A stretch of 46,173 bases of DNA, taken from positions 1 to 46,173 of IMG/VR virus record IMGVR_UViG_2778261505_000003; one strand, written 5' to 3'. Source of the stretch: a virus. Its lineage: Duplodnaviria > Heunggongvirae > Uroviricota > Caudoviricetes. Positions 2,795-46,173 of this stretch are shown piece after piece; the stretch's first letter is position 1, and each line of letters starts with the position of its first letter. The translations under genes were made by a program, and so were the position numbers. Below the pieces are notes generated by a model, which saw only the letters and a list, made by a program, of their open reading frames with translations, ran no database searches and had not been told where the DNA came from.

Positions 2795-5387
2795 TTGCAT
2801 ATTCCTTAGCCCAGCGGGGCAGTGATAACGTCTTAATAGCTGGCCATTCATCGGTATTGAGGCAGTCAGCCAGGGTTCGCAGATTGCGGTGATATTCCAG
2901 CTGACCTGCCAGTTTTGCTTCTTCGCCCATCATGAAAATTTCAACCGGATAACGTCCGCATTCAATAGTTGTGCTGGCAACCAGAAAAACGAAAGTTGGC
3001 TGCACTCCAAACTGTGCTTCATAACCGTCACTGTAGAATGCATCCTGAACGTGATAGCGGTAGTCGTAATAAGCTGTTTTGAATCGTTGAATATCCGCCG
3101 TAGTTTTCACGTCCATGATCCAGTGAAATTCAGGGATAATTTTGTCCGGACGGCACCGACACAAAATTCCTGTTTCAGGATCTTCCCAGTAAATTGATGA
3201 TTCAGCGTGTCCGGCGCTTTCAACAAGCCATTGCCCCAGCGGCAAAGCCATAACGCTTTGATACATGAGTTCAATTTTCCGGCCTTCTTCCGCAGTGATA
3301 ACCGTTTTTCCTGTGCTTGCGCATTCCATCAGAAACGCTTTCTCCTCTTCTTTTCCGGCGTTTGTACGGCGGTTAAATTCAGGTGCTACGATAAAGCGGT
3401 TACTGAATTCTTCCGGTTCAAGTACCCGGCAGTGGAAAGCGGTTCCTAAATCGAGCGTTTTTGTCTTTGTGGTGTCCACGGGGGCATTTTTACGCCACAA
3501 ATACAATGCCGGAGTATCAGCAATGTCATCGAGCTGAGACTTACTGACACCGGGACCCGCGTGGTAATTCTCATTCGAAATTCCGTAATAAATACCTGGC
3601 TCTATGTCTTCTACGATTACGGGATCTGCGACTTTGCCAGTTTCATCACTGCAATCGCGATGCGGATCGCTGCCAGCATTCTCATTGTGCGGATGTTCAG
3701 CGCCTTCCATTTCCTCCGGATCATTTTCCTTAGCTTCAACCTGACTCTCTTCATCGAATGTTTCCTGGTATGTTGCGTCGCCCATCACCGCACCACAGTC
3801 AGGGCAGTTATCCCCGCCAGTCTGGCCGCAGGCATTGCAGGCTATTTCCGGTTCCTGTTGCACTACTGGCTCAGGTTGATTCATATCCGGGCTGGTTTTT
3901 TCCGTTTCTGGCTGGTTCTGGTACACAGAATCGCGAGTCTGGATCCCCTTTACCCATTTCGGATCGTTCGGGTCGCTAATTCCGTCAACAAATTCACCAC
4001 GTGATGCAGCAAGCAATTTATTGGCATCGACAGGATTTTTTGATGGAATGTTTTTCCGGGCTTCATGGAGTTCTGCCCGCAGTTCCTGATATTTCGCATC
4101 AACAGAATTTACCTGTGACTGAGCATCCAGCGGCTGCGTGTCCTGATGATGTTCAGTTGCGTCCGGTTCCATTGTTTCAGTCTCTCCCTGTTCAACTGCC
4201 GTTGTTCCAGATGGTTGCGGTTTTTCTTCATCATCCTGTTTTCCTTCTTCTGTTACTCGCTGCGGCATCGGGGCAGAGGAGCGACCGCAGGCAATATCCA
4301 CGATTTCCGGATCAGGGTTGGCATGATCGGTTTCAGTCAGTACTTTGTTCAGATATTCAGTGACGTGCGCGGGGATGATCTCGATCCCAATTGGTGCTTC
4401 TTTTACGGACGCAACCACGATGGCGCGGGAATAATCCAGCCCGCCAGGCATGGTGATGAATTTGTCGCGGAAAACAGAAAAGGGCGGTTTATTTTCAGCG
4501 ATAATTTCCTCAATGCGTTTAGCGTGTGCCGGATGAATGTTATAGATGTCCAGATCCATTGAACGGGCCAGTACGCCAGTGGCTACGTCGCGCGCCAGTG
4601 ACGTCAGATCGTGTACGAAACCTTTGCCGCGATCGGTGAGGTTTCCGCCGCCAGCATTAGCACCGGAAGCCGTGCGAGTGATGTGTGAAACACGATTACC
4701 CTTCATCCACTCTTTTGTCAGCAGTCCTCGATCGGTGTAGTCAGCGTTCAGGTATGCTTCGAAAAAAGCAGTTATCAGTCCCAGGTTTGAATTACCAGGA
4801 TTAGGGAAAACTTTGTCAGTGTCACGAACCAGTTTGTGGAGATCGCGAATTTCCAGCGGGTCGAGCAGGCTGGTTTTGTGGGAAACAGCCAGGGCAGTAA
4901 CAGCCGGTAGTTCTTCAGCCCGAGCAATGTGTAATGCCTGGAGTCCGTCGCGTGAAACGTGCGTTACCGGTTTTTCGCTGCCGTGTTGAGCAAGCCAACG
5001 AATGGGCAGTTCCTGGCCAGAAATTGGGAGTAGCATATTCTCCTCAATCTCAGTCATGTCTTCGCCGTTGACGTTGGTATTGCCTTGATAGTGAGCGTTG
5101 TCTGGTGCTGCTCCCGGTTTTAGTTCCCATGTCATGGAGTCTTTGCTGAGTTGATAGCGTTCACTCCAGGTAAAATCGATCTCACCTTCAGCGGGCAGGT
5201 CATTAACGACAGGAAAATTCGTGGCAACAGCTTTAAAATAGCTGCTCAGTTTTTTACCTGACTTAACGATCAGGTAGTCCAGAGTGGCACAGGTCGATTC
5301 AAAATCGTCGCTTGCCCACAGGACGACGTCAGGTTCACCGGATGATTTTTTCGCTTTCCGTAACAGGAAGAGTGGTTTTGTGCTCAT
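2787..5387 (-). CDS. recE: RecE exonuclease VIII, 866 aa
   Basis: 866-aa ORF, same length as K-12 RecE; acidic N-terminal region and C-terminal nuclease domain directly upstream of recT. Confidence 0.88.
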
Positions 5388-5488
5388 TGTTTTTTAACCT
5401 CAACTCAGATTAAAATTCGTTTTGTTCAGTGAATGATCTTGCCGGATACACACTGTTCATAGCCTGCGCCATACGCAGGCTATTTCTT

Positions 5489-5764
5489 TCAGATTTCACC
5501 TTTTAATTTCATTGCAATTAGAGTTGCCAGAAATTCGGCTTTTTTTTCTGCGGGCAGATTCTTTCCGGTATGCACCAGGCACATTTTTTTGACACCTTCG
5601 TGAAGTGTTTTAACGTTGCCTGATGGACCGTCGATATCAACCACAGTGAATGGGGTTTCTTTATTTTCTGTTTTAATCACGTAGCCAATACGCTTTCCTT
5701 CCAGATTAACTTCGTGAACAATGTCATCAGTAGTTACAACAGTGGCTTCATAACTGGTAATCAT
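5489..5764 (-). CDS. racC: RacC, 91 aa from MITSYEATVV
   Basis: Translation matches recalled Rac RacC; position between recE and ydaE. Confidence 0.75.
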   Translation of the reverse strand: MITSYEATVVTTDDIVHEVNLEGKRIGYVIKTENKETPFTVVDIDGPSGNVKTLHEGVKKMCLVHTGKNLPAEKKAEFLATLIAMKLKGEI

Positions 5765-5838
5765 GTTTTTCTCCTTAATTAAGGTTGAGCGAATCCCTGC
5801 CATTGCTGGCATAAATTCAGTTTCGCATAGTCAGTTAA

Positions 5839-6009
5839 TTAAAGTTCGTGTGCCATCTGGTCTTTTTCGGCACATATTTCACTACAATATTTTTTCATTT
5901 CCGTCGTTGGGATAACTCCACGCATGAAATGAAGTGGTCTTTTAATGCTTTTGCTTTCTTTAACTTCTTTATCGCAAAGATGGTAAGCACATTTTATTTT
6001 CTTAGCCAT
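5839..6009 (-). CDS. ydaE: YdaE-like Cys-rich small protein, 56 aa ([16 protein letters not shown]...)
   Basis: Translated by hand from the minus strand (below the ORF-track size cut-off); start overlaps the kilR stop by 1 nt. Confidence 0.65.
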   Translation of the reverse strand: MAKKIKCAYHLCDKEVKESKSIKRPLHFMRGVIPTTEMKKYCSEICAEKDQMAHEL

Positions 6010-6230
6010 CACCATGACTCCGCCTTTACAGGTAAACCATCACGACCGAGGAAGACTTTAATCATGCAGTCAGTAATGCATGTTTTTGTGGTCAGGTTAC
6101 GAATATAAAGTTTTCGCTTTTTAATATTGTTTGCCGAGGCAATATATGTCCGGCCGTTATGAAGAATATAATCACCAGGAGTCACACACTGACGAGGTAT
6201 TTCATCAGTTCCGAAGTGATGAGCAATCAT
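6009..6230 (-). CDS. kilR: KilR cell-division inhibitor, 73 aa from [12 protein letters not shown]
   Basis: Translation matches recalled Rac KilR apart from a few substitutions. Confidence 0.8.
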
Positions 6231-6640
6231 AATTATCTCCATTTTCACAAATGAACTTTGTTGATGCGGTGCCTGGTGCCTCCAGGTGACGTTAACCAGT
6301 TAACAATTAACGCCGGATAATCCACCCATAACACTGATGCTTTTAACTGTTCCGCGTGCGCTTAGCCGCATTCACCGCATCACAAAATTCACTTTAAAAA
6401 GGGCGGACATCAGCCGAACTTCAAGAAAAAACTGATGCCGCCAAGACTACACACAGCAATGTCGTTATTTACAACCGGAGGCGCACTCCCACCATTTAAA
6501 TTTAACAGACAAGACCGACTCTTTATGGATATCGGAAATGCGCCTTCGTGTTGCGCCCAGTTTTATTTCACCACCTCCGGGCTTCGGTGGTTTCTGCTAT
6601 ACCCCTACAGCGAGAATATTGAATTAATCCAAATAATGGA

Positions 6641-6793
6641 TTAGCAAGTATTTCTGGCAAGCCAGCGACGTGCGCCCGTTTCAGTTTTGAATGTCTTGCT
6701 TTTGGTATAAGTCATGGCAGTGAACGTTCCATCCTGGTTGGGGAACACGCCGCACACCAGGGATTCGTTGTTGCCGAGGTCGATTTTTTGCAT
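6641..6793 (-). CDS. ydaF: YdaF-like small protein, 50 aa (MQKIDLGNNESLVCGVF...)
   Basis: Hand-translated minus-strand ORF; matches recalled Rac YdaF. Confidence 0.55.
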   Translation of the reverse strand: MQKIDLGNNESLVCGVFPNQDGTFTAMTYTKSKTFKTETGARRWLARNTC

Positions 6794-7727: not shown

Positions 7728-7982
7728 ATGAACCAGAAAACACTTGAAGATGTAATCAAAACTGTTCGCGTTTCTGTTGTGGCCGACGTTTGTGGTGTCA
7801 GCCAAAGAGCAATCTACAAATGGATGGATAACGGAAAATTGCCTCGCACAGAATATACCGGCGAAACAAATTACGCTGAAAAAATCGCTCATGCATCAAA
7901 CGGATTATTTTCTGCCGATGTGATTTTAACTATTGGCAGAAATAAAACTACTACGAAAAAGCTGATGGGAGTTGATTCATGA
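7728..7982 (+). CDS. ydaS: YdaS-like Cro-type HTH protein
   Basis: Small HTH ORF divergent from racR; start taken at MNQKTL (ORF track opens earlier at 7656). Confidence 0.7.
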   Translation: MNQKTLEDVIKTVRVSVVADVCGVSQRAIYKWMDNGKLPRTEYTGETNYAEKIAHASNGLFSADVILTIGRNKTTTKKLMGVDS

Positions 7983-8401
7983 AAATCAAGCATGAGCACA
8001 TCGAGTCAGTGTTGTTAGCCCTGGCAGCCGAAAAAGGGCAGGCATGGGTAGCCAATGCCATTACTGAAGAATATCTGCGCCAGGGGGGCGGCGAATTGCC
8101 CCTGGTACCAGGCAAGGACTGGAATAATCAGCAGAACATCTATCACCGTTGGTTAAAAGGTGAAACGGAAGCGCAAAGGGAAAAAATTCAGAAACTGATC
8201 CCTGCAATTCTGGCAATCCTTCCGCGCGAGCTGCGTCACCGACTCTGCATCTTCGATACCCTGGAACGCCGTGCATTACTGGCGGCGCAGGAAGCGTTAA
8301 GTACGGCAATTGATGCGCATGATGATGCAGTCCAGGCCGTTTACCGGAAAGCGCATTTCAGCGGCGGCGGGTCTTCCGACGATTCTGTCATTGTTCATTA
8401 A
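7979..8401 (+). CDS. ydaT: YdaT toxin-like protein, 140 aa
   Basis: 140-aa ORF overlapping the ydaS stop; matches recalled Rac YdaT in length and sequence. Confidence 0.8.
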   Translation: MKIKHEHIESVLLALAAEKGQAWVANAITEEYLRQGGGELPLVPGKDWNNQQNIYHRWLKGETEAQREKIQKLIPAILAILPRELRHRLCIFDTLERRALLAAQEALSTAIDAHDDAVQAVYRKAHFSGGGSSDDSVIVH

Positions 8402-8413
8402 GCAAAAGTTTCC

Positions 8414-9271
8414 ATGCTGTTTGTGCTTATTCTAAGCCACCGGGCAGCATCATACGGGGCAATTATGGCCGCATTACCATACATGCAACTGTACATAGCT
8501 GATTACCTGGCTGACACCATGCATTTGTCAGCAGAGGAGCATGGCGCGTATTTGTTGCTGATGTTCAATTACTGGCAAACAGGAAAGCCAATACCCAAAA
8601 ACAGGCTGGCAAAAATTGCCCGTCTGACTAACGAGCGATGGGCTGATGTTGAACCATCCTTGCGGGAGTTTTTTTGCGATAACGGCGAGGAATGGGTACA
8701 TCTTCGGATTGAGGAAGATCTGGCATCAGTCAGGGAAAAATTAACCAAAAAATCAGCCGCAGGAAAAGCATCTGTTCAGGCCAGAAGAAGCAGAAAGGAA
8801 GCAGATGTTCAAACAAAACAAGAGAGAAATTTAACAGGTGTTCAAACAGATGTTGAAGTGGTGTTTGAACATGATGTCAACACAAAGGCAACTAATAAAG
8901 ATACAGATAAAGATCTAAAAACAGCTCCCCCCCTAAATCCCCCCCGGGGGAATCGAGGTGTCAAAAAGTTTGACCCTCTGGATATTGCTTTGCCGAACTG
9001 GATTTCTGTCTCGCTTTGGCGTGAGTGGGTTGAATTTCGCCAGGCATTGCGTAAACCGATTCGAACGGAGCAGGGCGCTAACGGGGCGATACGGGAGCTG
9101 GAAAAATTCCGCCAGCAGGGTTTTTCACCTGAGCAGGTGATTCGACACAGCATCGCCAACGAATACCAGGGCTTGTTCGCGCCGAAAGGTGTTCGACCTG
9201 AGACGTTACTCCGACGGGTTAACACCGTTTCGTTACCGGACAGTGCGATCCCGCCAGGCTTCAGGGGGTAA
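8414..9271 (+). CDS. ydaU: YdaU-like replication protein (DUF1376-type), 285 aa
   Basis: 285-aa ORF in the lambda O position, same length as K-12 YdaU. Confidence 0.75.
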   Translation: MLFVLILSHRAASYGAIMAALPYMQLYIADYLADTMHLSAEEHGAYLLLMFNYWQTGKPIPKNRLAKIARLTNERWADVEPSLREFFCDNGEEWVHLRIEEDLASVREKLTKKSAAGKASVQARRSRKEADVQTKQERNLTGVQTDVEVVFEHDVNTKATNKDTDKDLKTAPPLNPPRGNRGVKKFDPLDIALPNWISVSLWREWVEFRQALRKPIRTEQGANGAIRELEKFRQQGFSPEQVIRHSIANEYQGLFAPKGVRPETLLRRVNTVSLPDSAIPPGFRG

Positions 9272-9277
9272 CTGACC

Positions 9278-10024
9278 ATGAAAAATATTGCGACAGGCGG
9301 CGTTCTTGAACGTATCCGCAGACTGGCCCCGTCACATGTAACCGCGCCATTCAAGACGGTAGCGGAGTGGCGTGAGTGGCAACTTTCCGAAGGCCAGAAA
9401 CGTTGTGAGGAGATCAACCGTCAGAATCGTCAGTTGCGGGTGGAAAAAATTCTGAATCGCTCTGGCATCCAGCCATTGCACCGCAAATGCTCGTTTGCGA
9501 ATTACCAGGTGCAGAACGACGGTCAGCGATATGCGTTGAACCAGGCGAAATCTATCGCTGATGAACTGATGACCGGGTGTACAAATTTTGCGTTCAGCGG
9601 AAAACCTGGTACCGGAAAAAACCATCTGGCGGCGGCTATCGGGAATCGCCTGCTGAAAGATGGCCAGACAGTGATTGTGGTTACCGTGGCTGATGTCATG
9701 AGTGCTCTACACGCTAGCTATGACGACGGGCAATCAGGCGAAAAATTTTTGCGGGAACTGTGCCAAGTGGATCTGCTGGTTCTTGATGAAATTGGCATTC
9801 AGCGCGAGACAAAAAACGAGCAGGTGGTGCTGCACCAGATTGTTGATCGCCGGACAGCGTCGATGCGCAGCGTGGGGATGCTGACAAACCTGAACTATGA
9901 GGCCATGAAAACATTGCTCGGCGAGAGGATTATGGATCGCATGACCATGAACGGCGGGCGATGGGTGAATTTTAACTGGGAGAGCTGGCGTCCGAATGTC
10001 GTCCAGCTAGGAATTGCGAAGTGA
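9278..10024 (+). CDS. ydaV: DnaC/IstB-like AAA+ helicase loader (YdaV)
   Basis: Walker A motif [15 protein letters not shown] and Walker B LLVLDEIG; occupies the lambda P position. Confidence 0.85.
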
Positions 10025-10808: not shown

Positions 10809-10823
10809 TTGCCGGAGGCGCTT

Positions 10824-11246
10824 ATGGCAAAAGTTTTTACACAGGAAGAGCGTGAAAAAATTAAGGAGCAGGTTGTTGAGCTGGTACGCCAGAGTGGGCG
10901 CGAGACGTTAAGGCAACTGGAGGCCAAGACAGGGGCGACAAGATATCTGATGAGCATTCTTGCCAGAGAGTTGGTTGCCAGTGGCGATGTATACAACTCT
11001 GGCTATGGGTTATTTACCTCTGAACAGGCTCGTAAGGACTGGAATAACGCCCGCAAAAAACTATCCAGGGCAAAGGTGAAAAAAACGGTTGTGGTTGATC
11101 CTGACCTTATCTGGTCATTACCAGACGGAGAAATACGCCGATATGACGGGCGTCTGAATATAATCTGTAGCGAGTGCCGTAAGAGCGAAGTTATGAAGCG
11201 TGTACTGATGTTTTATCGAGGAAGTATCCAGGAATTTATTCGGTAA
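10824..11246 (+). CDS. Hypothetical protein (about 140 aa), last gene of the early rightward operon
   Basis: GGAGG RBS 6 nt upstream of the ATG at 10824; protein-like composition; no family recognised. Confidence 0.45.
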   Translation: MAKVFTQEEREKIKEQVVELVRQSGRETLRQLEAKTGATRYLMSILARELVASGDVYNSGYGLFTSEQARKDWNNARKKLSRAKVKKTVVVDPDLIWSLPDGEIRRYDGRLNIICSECRKSEVMKRVLMFYRGSIQEFIR

Positions 11247-11382
11247 GCAAAATCAAAATGTAATCGCTCAAGTTTAAGTTGGTGTATCTACGGCGCAGAG
11301 CCATCGCCTCATCTGGCACTGCGCTAAAATCAAATTTAGTTCCACTCTTTATTTCGTATCTGCTAAAACGCTACATAAAATT

Positions 11383-11655
11383 TTACTTTTTTAAAGAATA
11401 AGGGAATATGTGCACCATATTGGAGGCTAGTGGATATATTCCTATGCTACGAGTTGTCTTTTTTAGTTGATCTATGCTTGCTTCTTTATCGGGAGCCCGG
11501 CCTCCCCACACTGTAACTCCCTCAGGTATATCGATTGGGCGACTTTTGTTTTCATCTGTGATTTCAATCGTTTCCCCATTATTAAGCGTAATAATCAACG
11601 ATGACACGTCCAGGTGTTGTGTATTCCCATTTTTATTTTTAATGTCTATTTTCAT
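11383..11655 (-). CDS. Hypothetical 90-aa protein (AT-rich cargo)
   Basis: ORF in low-GC DNA, divergent from the QueH-like gene; no TM segment or recognisable motif. Confidence 0.4.
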   Translation of the reverse strand: MKIDIKNKNGNTQHLDVSSLIITLNNGETIEITDENKSRPIDIPEGVTVWGGRAPDKEASIDQLKKTTRSIGIYPLASNMVHIFPYSLKK

Positions 11656-11925
11656 GGCTATTTCATTATATGTTATCTGTGCTGGAGTAATAAGTTTACA
11701 GTATTAAGAAGCATTTTGACGAAACAATCAACTGACTTATCAGCTAAGGTGGCATTGTAATGCGATCTGATTGGTATCATCAGGACGCTGTTCAAAAAAG
11801 GGGGATTAGTTGATCTTGAAATCTTGCTCAAAATGTGTAGCCTCTCGTTTAACTGCCAACTTTTTGGGGCAGTACACTCTGATGCTACACAACTTGCAAG
11901 TTTCATTACCCCGACGTAAACATTT

Positions 11926-12594
11926 ATGACAGTTGCTGATTTCAAACGTCCTAAGTTGGAGCTCCCAAACGGGGCAAACAAACTACTATTACACTCTTGT
12001 TGTGCACCATGTTCCGGTGAAGTGATGGAGGCTCTTCAGACCTCAGGAATCGACTACACCATCTTCTTCTATAATCCGAACATTCATCCTCAGAAAGAGT
12101 ATATGATTCGTAAGAATGAGAATATTCGATTTGCTGAACAACATGGTGTACCGTTTATCGATGCTGATTACGACACTGACAACTGGTTTGAGCGAGCCAA
12201 AGGAATGGAATGGGAGCCCGAACGTGGGAGGCGTTGTACTATGTGTTTTGACATGCGTTTTGAACGGACGGCGCTGTACGCCGCTGAAAATGGTTTCAGT
12301 GTGATCAGCAGTTCACTGGGCATTTCACGCTGGAAAAATATGCAGCAGGTTAACGACAGCGGACGGCGAGCTGTCGCACATTATCCGGGCATGGTGTACT
12401 GGGATTATAACTGGCGCAAGCAGGGAGGCTCGTCCCGCATGATTGAAATCAGCAAACGCGAACAATTCTATCAGCAGGAATATTGTGGTTGCGTGTATTC
12501 ACTTCGCGATACCAATTTACACCGCAAATCCCAGGGACGCCCTCTTATCAAAATTGGTCAACTCCACTACGGTAAAGAAGAAGGGCAGGAATGA
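11926..12594 (+). CDS. queH: DUF208/QueH-like protein (putative epoxyqueuosine reductase), 222 aa
   Basis: N-terminal [11 protein letters not shown] motif and downstream Cys residues (CTMC, CGC) characteristic of the QueH family; located in the AT-rich cargo island. Confidence 0.65.
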
Positions 12595-12903
12595 TTTTTA
12601 CATTACGTCAACAGAGTGTCACAACGTTTCTATATATGGTATGCCGACCGTAATTTTCGAATCATCATGACTAATAGGCAGGTCACCTATGCCAGCAATG
12701 ACCTGCTCATCTTGAAATTAGCAGAAATCTTGTAGCTATGATGTAGCTCAAAATAGTTTTTCATTCTTTTACCTGATGTCTGTTCCTGGCTGAAAACAGA
12801 CTGTATTATTTGATTACGCACCACTGACACTTGTGTATTGAAGTAGTGAGTACAAAGCCACATATTTATCAGTGTATGTATACGTCAAAAACAGGAGATT
12901 GTT

Positions 12904-12993
12904 GTGCTGGTTCTGAAGTGTGCGTTAGCAATAGTGGCTGTGGTGGCAATTTATTGCCTTGTTGTTGTTCTTATGGAGCGACTTTCTGATTGA
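12904..12993 (+). CDS. Candidate 29-codon ORF encoding a hydrophobic single-TM peptide (type I toxin-like); unverified
   Basis: AGGAGA RBS 5 nt upstream of a GTG; translation VLVLKCALAIVAVVAIYCLVVVLMERLSD has a hydrophobic core and a charged C-terminal tail. Confidence 0.25.
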   Translation: MLVLKCALAIVAVVAIYCLVVVLMERLSD

Positions 12994-13206
12994 TTACATA
13001 CTGGCTAAAAAAAAGCGTTTGCCTGGCTTATCTTTGTCCGGCAAGGTGCGCTCATTAATCTGAAGTAAATTTATTTCTTAAGTATTCAGATTACTTCTTA
13101 TGGTCGAAGTCTCCTGGCAATGTAGAACCAAAATATTTACAAAAACGAGACCCGTCGAGGATAGCTCTGCCGGGTCTGATTGTTAAAGTATTTTTAATAT
13201 GATCAT

Positions 13207-13551
13207 CTATTTTTTGGTGCTATAGACTTTTTCGCCTGAGAAGTCTGGAGCGACCCAAAAGTTAATATTAAACTGAGCATCATCGCTTAGTTCAACACGG
13301 TGCCAGTATTGTGGTGGGCTTGTTGCAAAAGAGCCAGCATTAATAACTACTTTTATCTCTGGTTCAGTAGTATTCTCATCAGCAAAACCATAATATGTTA
13401 CAGTGCCTTCCATTACGCACAACTGCCCAAAAACACCTGCTGCTGTATTATGATGTGTTAATAACGCTGAAGGTACGTTCTCTTTTGTGAAGAACGGAGT
13501 TGAGCGTTTGATTACCCAATCTTTAGGAATTCTCTTGTGTGTCATAACCAC
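13207..13551 (-). CDS. YeaR/DUF1971-like protein (TehB N-terminal-like beta-barrel), 114 aa
   Basis: Pattern RSTPFF...YYGFADE...FNINFWVAPD resembles the recalled E. coli YeaR; AT-rich context. Family call is from memory only. Confidence 0.45.
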   Translation of the reverse strand: MVMTHKRIPKDWVIKRSTPFFTKENVPSALLTHHNTAAGVFGQLCVMEGTVTYYGFADENTTEPEIKVVINAGSFATSPPQYWHRVELSDDAQFNINFWVAPDFSGEKVYSTKK

Positions 13552-14416
13552 CTCCTATAAAACATGTATTATAAATGCACCTTTTGAGGAGTTATGTCAA
13601 GCTCTTATGAAACACATAATTGATATGTTGATTAGAGGAGAAGATAGAATAAATATGGTTGTTTTTCGTATAACTACTTGTTTTGCTTTTGGTTTATGCA
13701 TTCTGTGTGTTAGGAATAAGTTATTAAAGCTTAATCAAGAAATCTCGATGTATTCCACATAGATTACTGTTACTGAACCTTATTGTGTGCATTAGTTGTG
13801 TTCTGAAATTTCAGCTTAATTATTTATGATATATTTTTTAACGATAAATATTTTTCCAGGTAAAAGACAGTTGGGAATAAGATAAGTAATATATCATTAA
13901 TCTTGATTATTCCCAGGGTACCTTTACTGTGCATATAAATAAATCATATATGCATCAAATAATGTAAAGGCATCCTTTTAGATATGTCTTATCAAATGTT
14001 AATGACTTGAGTGGGAAACATGATTCCAGCAACTTATCATGTGGCTACTTTATAAAAATAATGCCCATATAAAACAACAAGCGAAAAGGATTACGGATAA
14101 AAAAGGAGCGAGATGTGCAAACTTGTTATTTTCCATGTTTAACCACCTTAAATAATTGATGATGACGGGATGATTGCATCTGTAATGCTTTTATTGAAAT
14201 GTTATGATAAAAAAGAACTTTTTCATAACATTAAAATGTAATTTAGCTAATCGTTTTTAATAATAAGTGTCGTATTTCTATCCTTGTACCAGCTATTTGA
14301 TATGTAGTGTTTGTTCATGCTATGTGGGGCTTTACACCATAGCCAGTTTATTTATACTTTATTCGTCAGCCTGAACAACTGGCATCTGCTGCACTGCGCC
14401 ATAGAGAGATTGAGAA

Positions 14417-15016
14417 ATGGCGCATATACAACTGGTCAAACAAACTTCTTCTGGTTTACTTCTCCCGGCGACGCCGGAGAGTTGTGATTTTCTGCATCAA
14501 ATTAAAATAGGCGAGTGGATACACGCTGATTTTAAGCGTGTGCGTAACTACGCATTCCACAAGCGTTTTTTCAAACTCCTGCAACTGGGATTCGATTACT
14601 GGACTCCGGTCGGTGGGGCGATCACGCCTCGCGAACGAGAACTGCTGTCTGGTTTCGTTGATTACCTGTGCGAATCAGTTGGTCGGGAACACACGCCAGC
14701 CCTGAGTGATGCCGCAGAGCAATACCTGAATACAGTTGCGACACGCAGAACCCGGGATACGGCATTGCTAAAGTCGTTTGAGGCTTTTCGCGAGTGGGTA
14801 ACCATTCAGGCTGGATTTTACACCGAACATTTTTATCCGGACGGTAGCCATGGGCGTCGGGCGAAATCCATAGCTTTTGCGAATATGGACGAAACCGAGT
14901 TTCAGCAGGTTTATAAATCTGTTCTGAATGTGCTGTGGAACTGGATTCTGTTCCGTAAATTTTCCTCTCTGGAACAAGTCGAAAATGTGGCCGCGCAGCT
15001 GCTGGAGTTTGCGTAA
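14417..15016 (+). CDS. YbcN/DUF1367-like nin-region protein
   Basis: 199-aa ORF immediately upstream of, and translationally coupled (TAATG) to, the YbcO-like gene, as in the DLP12 nin region. Confidence 0.45.
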   Translation: MAHIQLVKQTSSGLLLPATPESCDFLHQIKIGEWIHADFKRVRNYAFHKRFFKLLQLGFDYWTPVGGAITPRERELLSGFVDYLCESVGREHTPALSDAAEQYLNTVATRRTRDTALLKSFEAFREWVTIQAGFYTEHFYPDGSHGRRAKSIAFANMDETEFQQVYKSVLNVLWNWILFRKFSSLEQVENVAAQLLEFA

Positions 15017-16197: not shown

Positions 16198-16272
<75 letters not shown>

Positions 16273-16275
16273 TAT

Positions 16276-16350
<75 letters not shown>

Positions 16351-43632: not shown

Positions 43633-44835
43633 CTAGGCTGCTGTAAATCTTCGATACTTTCTTAACATAAAGATCATGATTAGAATAATTGAAAGTAAGT
43701 AAACAATCCAAATGGTGATATTTCGTTCAATTAAAAAGCTACCAATTCCGCCGATCACTGAAGGAATCACCAGAGAAGCGGCCCCCATTAACGCAGATGT
43801 GGCACCCAGACTGGTACGTTGGCTGGACATAGTTAGATAAGTATAAAGTGATTCGAACATACCTCCGGCAAACATCAAAATAATGAAGAATAATATAAAG
43901 ACATTGACATGATGAACGAATGTTATTAGCGGAGTGCACAATACGATAAATGAAGCAATGAGCTTCAGCCATAAACTCAAAATTTGTGGTGCAGACCGCT
44001 TCTTAAGTAGTTTACCTGATAGTGCTGCTCCCAGCAGAAGGAATCCTCCAATAATTGATGAGATAACACCAAATTGCGTAGATGAGTATCCATACTTAAC
44101 CATCAAAATAAATGGGGAAGCTGTGACATAACAATAAATTAGAGAGAATGAAAGTCCAAGAGAAAGGCAAGGTAGATAAAATCTTGGTTGCTTACTTATC
44201 TCTTTGTACGTAAGAAATGATGATTTTAGTGAATATGTAATCCGTTTTTTATGACTGAGTGTTTCAGGGAAGTTAAAATAGACATACGTTAATGTTACAA
44301 CAGAATATCCTAATATCATTAGAAAAATTGCACGCCATCCCCATACATCATTAATTATTCCTCCCAGCAGTGGAGAAGCAATAGGCACGACACCTTCAAT
44401 AGTTATGATAATAGCGTACAGTGTAGCAGCCACTGAACCGCGTGTTACATCACGAACAGCACTAATTGCTGTAACCAGAGTTATTGATATAGAAAGCCCC
44501 TGTATGATGCGTATTGTAAGAAACGTACCCAATCCGGTCGAGAGTGTGAGGCAATATGTTGTCACACAATAAATAATAGCACCTGAAAGCATAATTCTTC
44601 GACGACCAATAGAATCAGATAATGGGCCAAAAATTAGCTGTCCAAAACCTATGCAAAGGGTATAAACCATGATAGACAATTGCATGGACGGGATGTTTTG
44701 TCTAAATTCTTTTGCGATGTCAGGAATTGAAGGCAAATAAGTGTCCACACCTAGAATGCCCATAATAGTCAGCAGCGATAGGCCAATAGTAAAGAAAAGT
44801 ATATTCTTTCTGTGAATAACAGCTTGTGATTTCAT
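43633..44835 (-). CDS. MFS transporter (Bcr/CflA-like drug:H+ antiporter type), 400 aa, AT-rich
   Basis: Twelve predicted TM segments; MFS signature GRRRIMLSG between TM2 and TM3; markedly lower GC than the flanking phage genes. Confidence 0.8.
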   Translation of the reverse strand: MKSQAVIHRKNILFFTIGLSLLTIMGILGVDTYLPSIPDIAKEFRQNIPSMQLSIMVYTLCIGFGQLIFGPLSDSIGRRRIMLSGAIIYCVTTYCLTLSTGLGTFLTIRIIQGLSISITLVTAISAVRDVTRGSVAATLYAIIITIEGVVPIASPLLGGIINDVWGWRAIFLMILGYSVVTLTYVYFNFPETLSHKKRITYSLKSSFLTYKEISKQPRFYLPCLSLGLSFSLIYCYVTASPFILMVKYGYSSTQFGVISSIIGGFLLLGAALSGKLLKKRSAPQILSLWLKLIASFIVLCTPLITFVHHVNVFILFFIILMFAGGMFESLYTYLTMSSQRTSLGATSALMGAASLVIPSVIGGIGSFLIERNITIWIVYLLSIILIMIFMLRKYRRFTAA

Positions 44836-45188
44836 TATTTATCACCATGAATAAATTAAAAGAATGAAAAAAACTCCATTTAAATGGAAGGAGGTGGATA
44901 ATTATCGTGTAGGCAATACAACAGAGTTGAAAAGAACTGTCAAACTTTTAACTCAAAAAAGTGAGATGTGAATCACAGACATAAAAATCATCTTTTTCAG
45001 TCCTATGGTTCAGTTAAATTTGATTGTTATCGTACGAAGGTTTGAACGTGTGTGTGCGTATGCGGTATTTTTTCTTGCGAGTGCCGGAGTTATGAGAACG
45101 TTGTATTAACCTTCATAATCTGACCTATTCAATTGATTCCAGTACACCAATGGGTATTTTGGTGTTATGGTATGTGACTCCAAATAAA

Positions 45189-45410
45189 ATGGAGCGTGAA
45201 CTGATAGTTGAGCGAACAAAAGTCGGACTAGAAACCGCTCGGGTACAGTGGCGAATTGGAGTTGGCGACCCAAACTGACCTAGGAACAATCGTTGCAGAT
45301 CGGACGATTAATTTCATCAGAAATTCCTCGCTAAAAGGTGGCTATCACTGTGATGTTAACGTATCTAATTTGTACAAGAAATTTCTGCGGGGGAAAATGA
45401 AACCGCAGAC
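45189..45410 (+). pseudogene. Remnant of a serine DNA invertase (Pin/Hin/Gin family) C-terminus, frameshifted
   Basis: MERELIVERTKVGLETAR matches the conserved invertase motif; after a frame change ...DVNVSNLYKKF matches the C-terminal HTH; the N-terminal catalytic domain is absent. Confidence 0.45.
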
Positions 45411-45597
45411 TCGTTGTATGCAAAAACGTGCTGCGGCTAACTGGTGAACTTTCGATAGTGCGGGTATTGAATGATTTCTAGGCGTTATCGATTTTACGTA
45501 TTTTTTGCATGATAGAATTCGTACCTCCTCCCAACGACCTTCCATGGCTTTCCGGACTTCTGTAGGCCGGCGGACGATGCTGTCCTCGGATGTTGTG

Positions 45598-46173
45598 CTA
45601 ATTGGGTGATAACAGATCCTGTGTATGGGAGTTTCCCTTTGTGCGTGCGTTGATGCTGGTAACGGTAAACGTCATGATGAACACGACCGCGAATAAGACG
45701 ACAATCGTCGGAGCTGGTGCGCTGTCGATAAAAAAGGACAACCAGACACCAGTCATTGACACTATTACCGATATGCCAGTTGCCAGTAGGAGCGCAATAT
45801 GAAAGCGTTGTGTCAGGAGTACCGCAATGGCGCCAGGCGCAATGAGCAGAGAAATGGAGAGAATGATACCTACTGCTTTCAGCGTCGCCACAATGGTCAG
45901 AGAGACCATGCACAGCAGCCCATAATGCAGCCATCTCGTATGCAAACCGCTTACCTGCGCCTGTTGATAATCAAAGCTGAACAGCAAAAAATCCCGCCAT
46001 TTTACGCTAATAACAAGTGTAACCAGCCCGGCAATAATCATCGTCTGGATTATATCGCCGATGGTTATCCCGAGCATGTCGCCGAAAAGAATATGGTCAA
46101 GATGTACGTCTGGTTTGACTGCAATATACAAGATCAGACCTGCGGCAAACATGCCAGAAAAAACAATCCCCAT
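45598..46173 (-). CDS. sitD: C-terminal part of a SitD/MntD-like ABC-3 metal transporter permease; N-terminus lies beyond the window end
   Basis: Polytopic membrane ORF open to the window edge; family resemblance to Mn/Fe ABC permeases (from memory). Confidence 0.6.
   Translation of the reverse strand: MGIVFSGMFAAGLILYIAVKPDVHLDHILFGDMLGITIGDIIQTMIIAGLVTLVISVKWRDFLLFSFDYQQAQVSGLHTRWLHYGLLCMVSLTIVATLKAVGIILSISLLIAPGAIAVLLTQRFHIALLLATGISVIVSMTGVWLSFFIDSAPAPTIVVLFAVVFIMTFTVTSINARTKGNSHTQDLLSPN

Follow-up and report, generated by a model that had tools for sequence, protein, structure and literature searches.

A gene of the epoxyqueuosine reductase QueH family carried at the ren/nin junction of lambdoid prophages of Escherichia coli and Shigella

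Cobalamin is not synthesised by E. coli. Mutants of strain K-12 with queG deleted accumulate epoxyqueuosine (oQ), and the deletion is complemented by QueH genes from other bacteria. To our knowledge, no functional difference between oQ and queuosine (Q) has been established. In the pathway, oQ34 is formed by QueA on tRNAs with GUN anticodons, and the epoxide is reduced to Q by either QueG or QueH (PMC5372724, PMC9508795). QueG, whose route requires cobalamin (PMC4646009, citing Frey 1988), and QueH belong to unrelated families and catalyze the same reaction, oQ34 to Q34 (PMC5372724, PMC4646009). Genes recruited from the queuosine pathway are also known from phages, where clusters of dpdA with folE, queD, queE and queC provide the early steps and direct 7-deazaguanines to DNA; these clusters contain no queA, queG or queH, and a survey of deazaguanine genes in viruses published in 2019 reported no homologues of the three (PMC6884629). 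No account of a QueH encoded by a phage or prophage in E. coli was found in the literature searched.

The DNA analysed here, referred to as the window, is the whole 46,173-nucleotide stretch of the IMG/VR virus record IMGVR_UViG_2778261505_000003. Its first-pass annotation, made from the letters alone, had proposed a QueH-like (DUF208) gene carried as phage cargo, and the gene was found at exactly the position given there (Table 1). The start of the open reading frame is fixed at 11926 by an in-frame TAA at 11917, which excludes a longer N-terminus. The Pfam profile PF02677 (QueH, formerly DUF208) matches the product with E = 1e-65 and 221.5 bits, against a curated gathering score of 23.5, and the match spans profile positions 1-174 of 175, i.e., the full-length domain. 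Thermotoga maritima QueH (PDB 7lc5) matches residues 20-196 with E = 2e-22, and the entries of this protein (7lc5 and its variants) are the only solved relatives. No NCBIfam model matches the window protein, while the gene of a 99.9% identical prophage is named 'epoxyqueuosine reductase QueH' by PGAP/RefSeq (WP_001595668.1).

The fold was modeled with AlphaFold2. The model from the single sequence was unusable (pLDDT 40), and a 54-sequence alignment was used as input instead, giving a pLDDT of 80 and a pTM of 0.83. In a Foldseek search of the PDB, T. maritima QueH accounts for the best five matches, with a TM-score of 0.86 (normalised to target) to 7lc5 and an rmsd of 2.2 A over 180 columns, so that the comparison with QueH structures bears out the proposed family. 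The next best matches are distant relatives in the adenine-nucleotide alpha-hydrolase superfamily, e.g., TtuA and LarE.

The signature from which the first-pass annotation had assigned the family is present as residues 20-30. Conservation was assessed in an alignment of 65 sequences, comprising the window QueH, T. maritima QueH and 63 full-length sequences, each of which represents a 50%-identity cluster and shares 35-72% identity with the window protein, and in a second alignment of 33 sequences (35-73% identity). Residues C25 and C26 are invariant in all 65 members, and at position 29, 60 members have Cys and five have Asp; Cys predominates, so CCAPC represents the canonical motif rather than a deviation. 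The window protein retains the invariant columns C25, C26, N52, R62, E99, R103, C104, C107, K137, Q184, C187, G188 and C189 of the larger alignment, as well as the near-invariant E58, Y59 and R111; in the smaller alignment, it retains all 15 of the invariant columns, namely, the same thirteen together with C29 and R111. In the T. maritima structure (7lc5), six cysteines and the Cys or Asp four residues behind the first of them reportedly serve as ligands of a [4Fe-4S] cluster and an adjacent iron, and structures of the C9S and D13N mutants of that protein are also present in the PDB. In all of the sequence and structure comparisons made, the product of the window gene thus behaves as a family member, and it is, as judged from sequence and model, a full-length QueH with a complete set of predicted metal ligands.

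Table 1. Features of the queH locus and of the two tRNA genes in the window
Feature	Coordinates	Strand	Description
DUF977 / Ren-like gene	10809..11246	+	Pfam DUF977, PHROG 142; last gene of the replication module and constant upstream neighbour of queH
5' leader of queH	11878..11925	+	about 48 nt, travels with queH; begins with invariant TCTGATGCTACAC; A/T-rich right before the ATG
queH CDS	11926..12594	+	222 aa plus stop, ATG to TGA; epoxyqueuosine reductase QueH family
CCAPC motif codons	11998..12012	+	C25-C26-A27-P28-C29; align with T. maritima C9, C10, D13
CxxC motif codons	12235..12246	+	C104-T-M-C107; T. maritima C87, C90; invariant in 65/65 and 33/33
CGC motif codons	12484..12492	+	C187-G188-C189; T. 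maritima C169, C171; invariant in 65/65
NinB-like (DUF1367) gene	14417..15016	+	Pfam DUF1367, PHROG 319 NinB/Orf; start of the nin/Q region and right edge of the island
tRNA Thr(TGT)	16198-16272
tRNA Gly(TCC)	16276-16350

The prophage protein has the same fold, the same six cysteines and the other invariant residues of T. maritima QueH over a full-length domain. It differs in being only 31% identical, in the presence of Cys29 where T. maritima has Asp13, in extensions of 19 aa at the N-terminus and about 26 aa at the C-terminus, and in its location in a prophage rather than in a chromosomal housekeeping locus. The closest relatives are found in Enterobacterales chromosomes, with amino acid identities of 85-92% in Enterobacter, about 85% in Erwinia, 83-85% in Providencia and Proteus, and 78% in Photorhabdus, over the whole length and with the same termini. 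At 78-92% identity, the prophage copy is closely related to the usual bacterial QueH and does not represent a divergent viral paralogue.

In Providencia, queH encodes an 83% identical protein and is located in a core neighbourhood, dapE-tmcA-DUF441-queH-...-purC, which contains no phage genes. No chromosomal context of queH is shared across the 80 species-representative genomes compared; the contexts in Enterobacter differ from one another and from that in Providencia. Lambdoid neighbours of queH were found only in Escherichia albertii and Shigella flexneri among these genomes, and such phage neighbours distinguish the Escherichia/Shigella copies from the chromosomal ones. In Enterobacter hormaechei B56 (locus positions 5160-6669), a 92% identical queH is located right after a 234-aa fragment of the phage integrase family, beside budR-budAB; none of the loci from the remaining 79 species combines an integrase fragment with the bud operon, and the context hints at an old, decayed delivery by a mobile element.

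The phage setting claimed for the gene is fully represented: genes of an integrase, RecET recombination, replication, a Q-like antiterminator, lysis, terminase, head and tail surround the ORF. Over the segment compared (11400-13000), the window is 99.9% identical to a prophage of E. coli SCU-109, integrated adjoining ttcA. The left part of the SCU-109 prophage is represented by intR, xisR, ralR, recT, recE and kilR, followed by the repressor, a cro-like gene, ydaT, ydaU, ydaV, and the DUF1627 and DUF977 genes, after which the island with queH is located; behind the island are the NinB-like DUF1367 gene, ybcO, the gene for a Q-like antiterminator (DUF1133) and two tRNA genes, and the right end comprises lysis genes and genes for terminase, portal, capsid and lambda-like tail proteins. 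This gene order identifies the window as a full-length relative of Rac, the cryptic prophage of K-12. In K-12 Rac, ydaW is followed directly by rzpR, and the segment from DUF977 through queH, nin, Q and lysis to the head genes is lost.

The gene queH belongs to an accessory island of 3.2 kb (11250-14400), the GC content of which is 28-43% compared with about 50% on both sides; that of queH itself is 47%. Its position at the ren/ninB junction, the AT-rich flanks and its absence from K-12 Rac and from E. coli BL21(DE3) correspond to a moron-type placement. In the Qin-like prophage of BL21(DE3), DUF977 is directly followed by hokD and queH is missing, while the E. coli B derivative B-StaR has kept an intact queH in its Qin-like element. 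Among 80 IMG/VR loci, 75 have DUF977(+) followed by queH(+), and in the remaining five queH is not preceded by any gene; the two genes are most often separated by 181 bp. Downstream of queH, the loci vary, containing hokD, a Dcm/NgoMIV restriction-modification pair, or a small ORF with a DUF1971 gene, with nin genes after these. The layout of the window, an antisense 90-aa ORF, queH(+), a 29-aa ORF(+) and DUF1971(-), was found in only two of the 80. In the prophage of E. coli O157:H7 Z1486 (locus positions 7851-9861), genes for a Dcm-type methyltransferase and a restriction endonuclease of the NgoMIV family are located directly after queH, which marks the junction as a hot spot for defence cargo. 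Like hokD and the restriction-modification cassettes of the ren/nin junction, queH thus shares the hot spot, the AT-rich flanks and the variable presence in related prophages; unlike these morons, no promoter or terminator of its own was detected, and in the 80 queH-carrying loci the gene is found intact without exception, whereas the genes downstream of it change from locus to locus.

Searching by megablast, queH was found in 995 of 5426 complete E. coli genomes (about 18%), with at least 80% of the gene covered in 985 of the 995 matches. Of these matches, 43 are at least 99% identical to the window gene and 952 represent an allele of 90-95% identity; every match among those listed is labeled epoxyqueuosine reductase QueH by PGAP. 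Carriers include O157:H7, ST131 and one E. coli B derivative. As the first-pass annotation had assumed, E. coli uses QueG: the gene queG is core and was found in all 5426 genomes, so that every carrier of the accessory queH has both enzymes. In IMG/VR, at least 184 contigs contain close relatives of queH, as judged by close-relative patterns, and broad family patterns retrieve 215 viral contigs; phage-borne QueH is therefore almost confined to the clade of the window. All of the 80 IMG/VR alleles examined are intact and encode nine distinct proteins. A single cultured phage with queH, Escherichia phage HannyBb, is present in INPHARED; its protein, annotated as hypothetical, is 96% identical in amino acids. 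Prophage alleles compared with one another have a dN/dS of 0.04-0.06 at dS 0.27-0.46, and such low values at such divergence indicate that queH has long resided in the phage pool and is strongly constrained by purifying selection.

The published statement that viruses lack QueH (PMC6884629) is corrected by these prophage genes. The enzyme itself is known and named in RefSeq, and its phage context appears to be undescribed. There is also an annotation gap: the window protein is assigned to phrog_3217, the label of which is 'unknown function', and the profile of PHROG 3217 starts at residue 34, so that many phage records seem to start at an internal Met and lose the catalytic CCAPC.

The leader of queH (Table 1) is conserved in five aligned alleles although the sequence further upstream differs, and the megablast match to phage HannyBb starts at window position 11878. 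The same five-allele alignment contains no Shine-Dalgarno sequence before the queH ATG. Neither a sigma-70-like promoter on the + strand upstream of queH nor a + strand terminator between DUF977 and queH was found in three contexts, namely, the window, O157 and E. coli B, by simple consensus matching, in which the absence of a match is weak evidence. The nearest terminator-like site on the + strand (12945-12982) is 350 nt downstream of queH. The simplest reading of the missing promoter and terminator is co-transcription with the early-right operon; in the window, the AT-rich spacer of 680 bp and the antisense 90-aa ORF make read-through less certain than in the 181-bp arrangement. On this reading, queH probably shares a transcript with the phage early genes rather than using a promoter of its own, and its expression may follow prophage induction rather than serve the repressed lysogen. 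A promoter or leaderless-mRNA signal in the conserved leader was also looked for and not found, the hexamers being poor and wrongly spaced. When the leader and the 3' flank were folded, the z-scores were +0.55 and -0.34, respectively, and no structured element stood out from the shuffled controls.

Overall, the locus is likely best explained by a catalytically competent, captured QueH that would be expressed with the early operon, act on host tRNA and complete Q without cobalamin. According to this explanation, queH would have been captured from an Enterobacterales chromosome and would by now have become fixed as an accessory gene at the ren/nin junction in a lineage of lambdoid prophages of E. 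coli and Shigella. Its product would be an iron-sulfur, cobalamin-independent enzyme converting oQ34 to Q34 on the host tRNA-Asp, tRNA-Asn, tRNA-His and tRNA-Tyr. It would most likely be made when the early-right (replication) operon is transcribed, on infection or induction, with some expression possible in lysogens or in derepressed defective prophages. The activity would require iron-sulfur assembly and a host reductant, and the benefit would be completion of Q in cells that have no cobalamin or can no longer take it up, in which QueG stands idle. That a prophage copy would give the lysogen a second, B12-independent route to Q-tRNA had been suggested from the outset, and we regard this as soundly inferred. 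For the unknown phage process named there as the alternative, the prophage offers no partner gene. The two phage tRNAs named together with it, Gly-UCC and Thr-UGU, are real, and neither has a GUN anticodon; they cannot be substrates of the queuosine pathway, so the targets would be host tRNAs.

A different expression of the same enzyme would make queH a classical lysogenic-conversion gene, a moron with its own promoter that provides B12-independent queuosine as a standing fitness trait of the host. Its location in an AT-rich accessory island at a known moron hot spot, the exchange of its neighbours (hokD, restriction-modification genes or DUF1971) from phage to phage and the leader of about 48 nt that moves along with it are all consistent with such a gene, as is the intact queH in defective prophages, e.g., the Qin-like element of B-StaR, where a benefit in the lytic cycle is unlikely. 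However, the consensus scans revealed no sigma-70-like promoter on the + strand upstream of it in the three contexts, the conserved leader does not offer enough room for a promoter as well as an untranslated region, and queH is without exception close to the early operon and on the same strand. A moron of this kind is regarded as rather doubtful. Carriage of queH as a functionless passenger of hot-spot recombination would fit the presence of queG in the host and the existence of related prophages without queH (K-12 Rac and the Qin-like element of BL21(DE3)). A passenger would not be expected to retain all invariant residues, to be intact in 80 of 80 alleles or to have a dN/dS of about 0.05 at dS up to 0.46; from these selection data, the passenger is already disfavoured, and we consider it the least probable of all the explanations.

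The remaining explanations assign the enzyme to the phage itself. In Shewanella, phage infection up-regulates queG alone among the Q genes and shifts oQ to Q, and effects on NAT-biased genes were described in the same preprint (bioRxiv 10.64898/2026.03.05.709803). In Vibrio anguillarum, repeated queG frameshifts were found in phage-resistant isolates. These reports suggest that the step from oQ to Q can matter in phage-host encounters, and together with the early-operon position of queH they are consistent with QueH as a phage tool, by which oQ would be forced to Q in infection and NAU/NAC decoding, or the recognition of tRNAs by anticodon-targeting nucleases, would be altered. Against this, the codon usage of the phage for the four Q-decoded amino acids equals that of the host sample: NAU has a share of 0.585 among the codons for Asn, Asp, His and Tyr in a set of 36 phage genes, compared with 0.586 in the 10 genes of the host, with no phage enrichment, and a codon-usage rationale for phage queH was rejected on these values. 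The window also contains no adjacent defence or anti-defence partner, and we know of no nuclease that tells oQ from Q, which likewise counts against such a tool; it is regarded as quite improbable. A related proposal is that temperate coliphages carry QueH to control the normally vitamin-limited last step of queuosine formation, reprogramming decoding or evading a tRNA-directed host response in infection, and we consider this improbable. A substrate other than tRNA, e.g., a 7-deazaguanine or an epoxide-bearing base in phage DNA, is suggested by the phages known to place 7-deazaguanines in their DNA (PMC6884629). A transglycosylase of the DpdA/TGT type and genes for preQ0 synthesis would be required; genes for DpdA/TGT, QueC, QueD, QueE, FolE and QueA are all absent from the annotated genes of the 99.9% identical SCU-109 prophage. 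In addition, the 7-deazaguanine phages are without QueH (PMC6884629), and the prophage protein is 83% identical to a Providencia copy in a core chromosomal neighbourhood. While the DNA clusters contain early pathway steps, the prophage here contains only the last, tRNA-specific step of queuosine synthesis and no transglycosylase. The role in DNA modification was rejected because the partner genes are absent, and any non-tRNA substrate is considered very improbable.

Returning to the preferred explanation, a captured QueH acting on host tRNA, its consequences concern the reference organism of queuosine biology, the K-12 Rac prophage of which is without the queH-bearing segment. If the prophage enzyme is active, tRNA modification in B12-poor conditions would differ among E. 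coli strains in a way so far unaccounted for, and a comparison of natural strains with and without queH would directly address whether oQ differs from Q in function. If control of the last step by the phage were true, QueH would be the first known phage enzyme editing the anticodon modification of host tRNA for the benefit of the phage, and oQ versus Q would be a physiologically meaningful switch.

The other ORFs in the island of the window are the antisense 90-aa ORF, a 29-aa hydrophobic ORF and an antisense DUF1971 gene. The 90-aa ORF (11383-11655, - strand) is located between DUF977 and queH, antisense to the early operon, and is annotated by PGAP as hypothetical (WP_000686865.1); its product has no Pfam or PHROG match. 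The 29-aa ORF, MLVLKCALAIVAVVAIYCLVVVLMERLSD (12904-12993, + strand), has a strong ribosome-binding site, AGGAG six nt upstream of a GTG start, and the terminator-like hairpin downstream of queH overlaps it. Its product, also without a Pfam or PHROG match, is conserved in phage HannyBb and E. coli B-StaR, where the substitutions are conservative and the ORF is located between queH and hokD, and could be a small membrane peptide or a type I toxin. The DUF1971 gene (13207-13551, - strand) encodes a domain similar to YeaR and to the N-terminal part of TehB (PF09313, E 3e-26). The region 13600-14400, before the NinB-like gene, has a GC content of 28-33% and contains only short ORFs, the longest of which wholly inside it is 38 aa.

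Of RNA genes, only RalA and the two tRNAs were found in the window by an Rfam scan. The antitoxin sRNA RalA (1557-1735, + strand; RF02694, 220 bits) is located opposite ralR, and the two represent a type I toxin-antitoxin pair of the Rac type. At the other end of the window, beyond the tail-fibre genes, a gene for an MFS efflux protein of the Bcr/CflA type and the start of the genes for the sitABCD iron/manganese transporter were found (43633-46173, - strand), which shows that the window extends beyond the prophage into a sit island.
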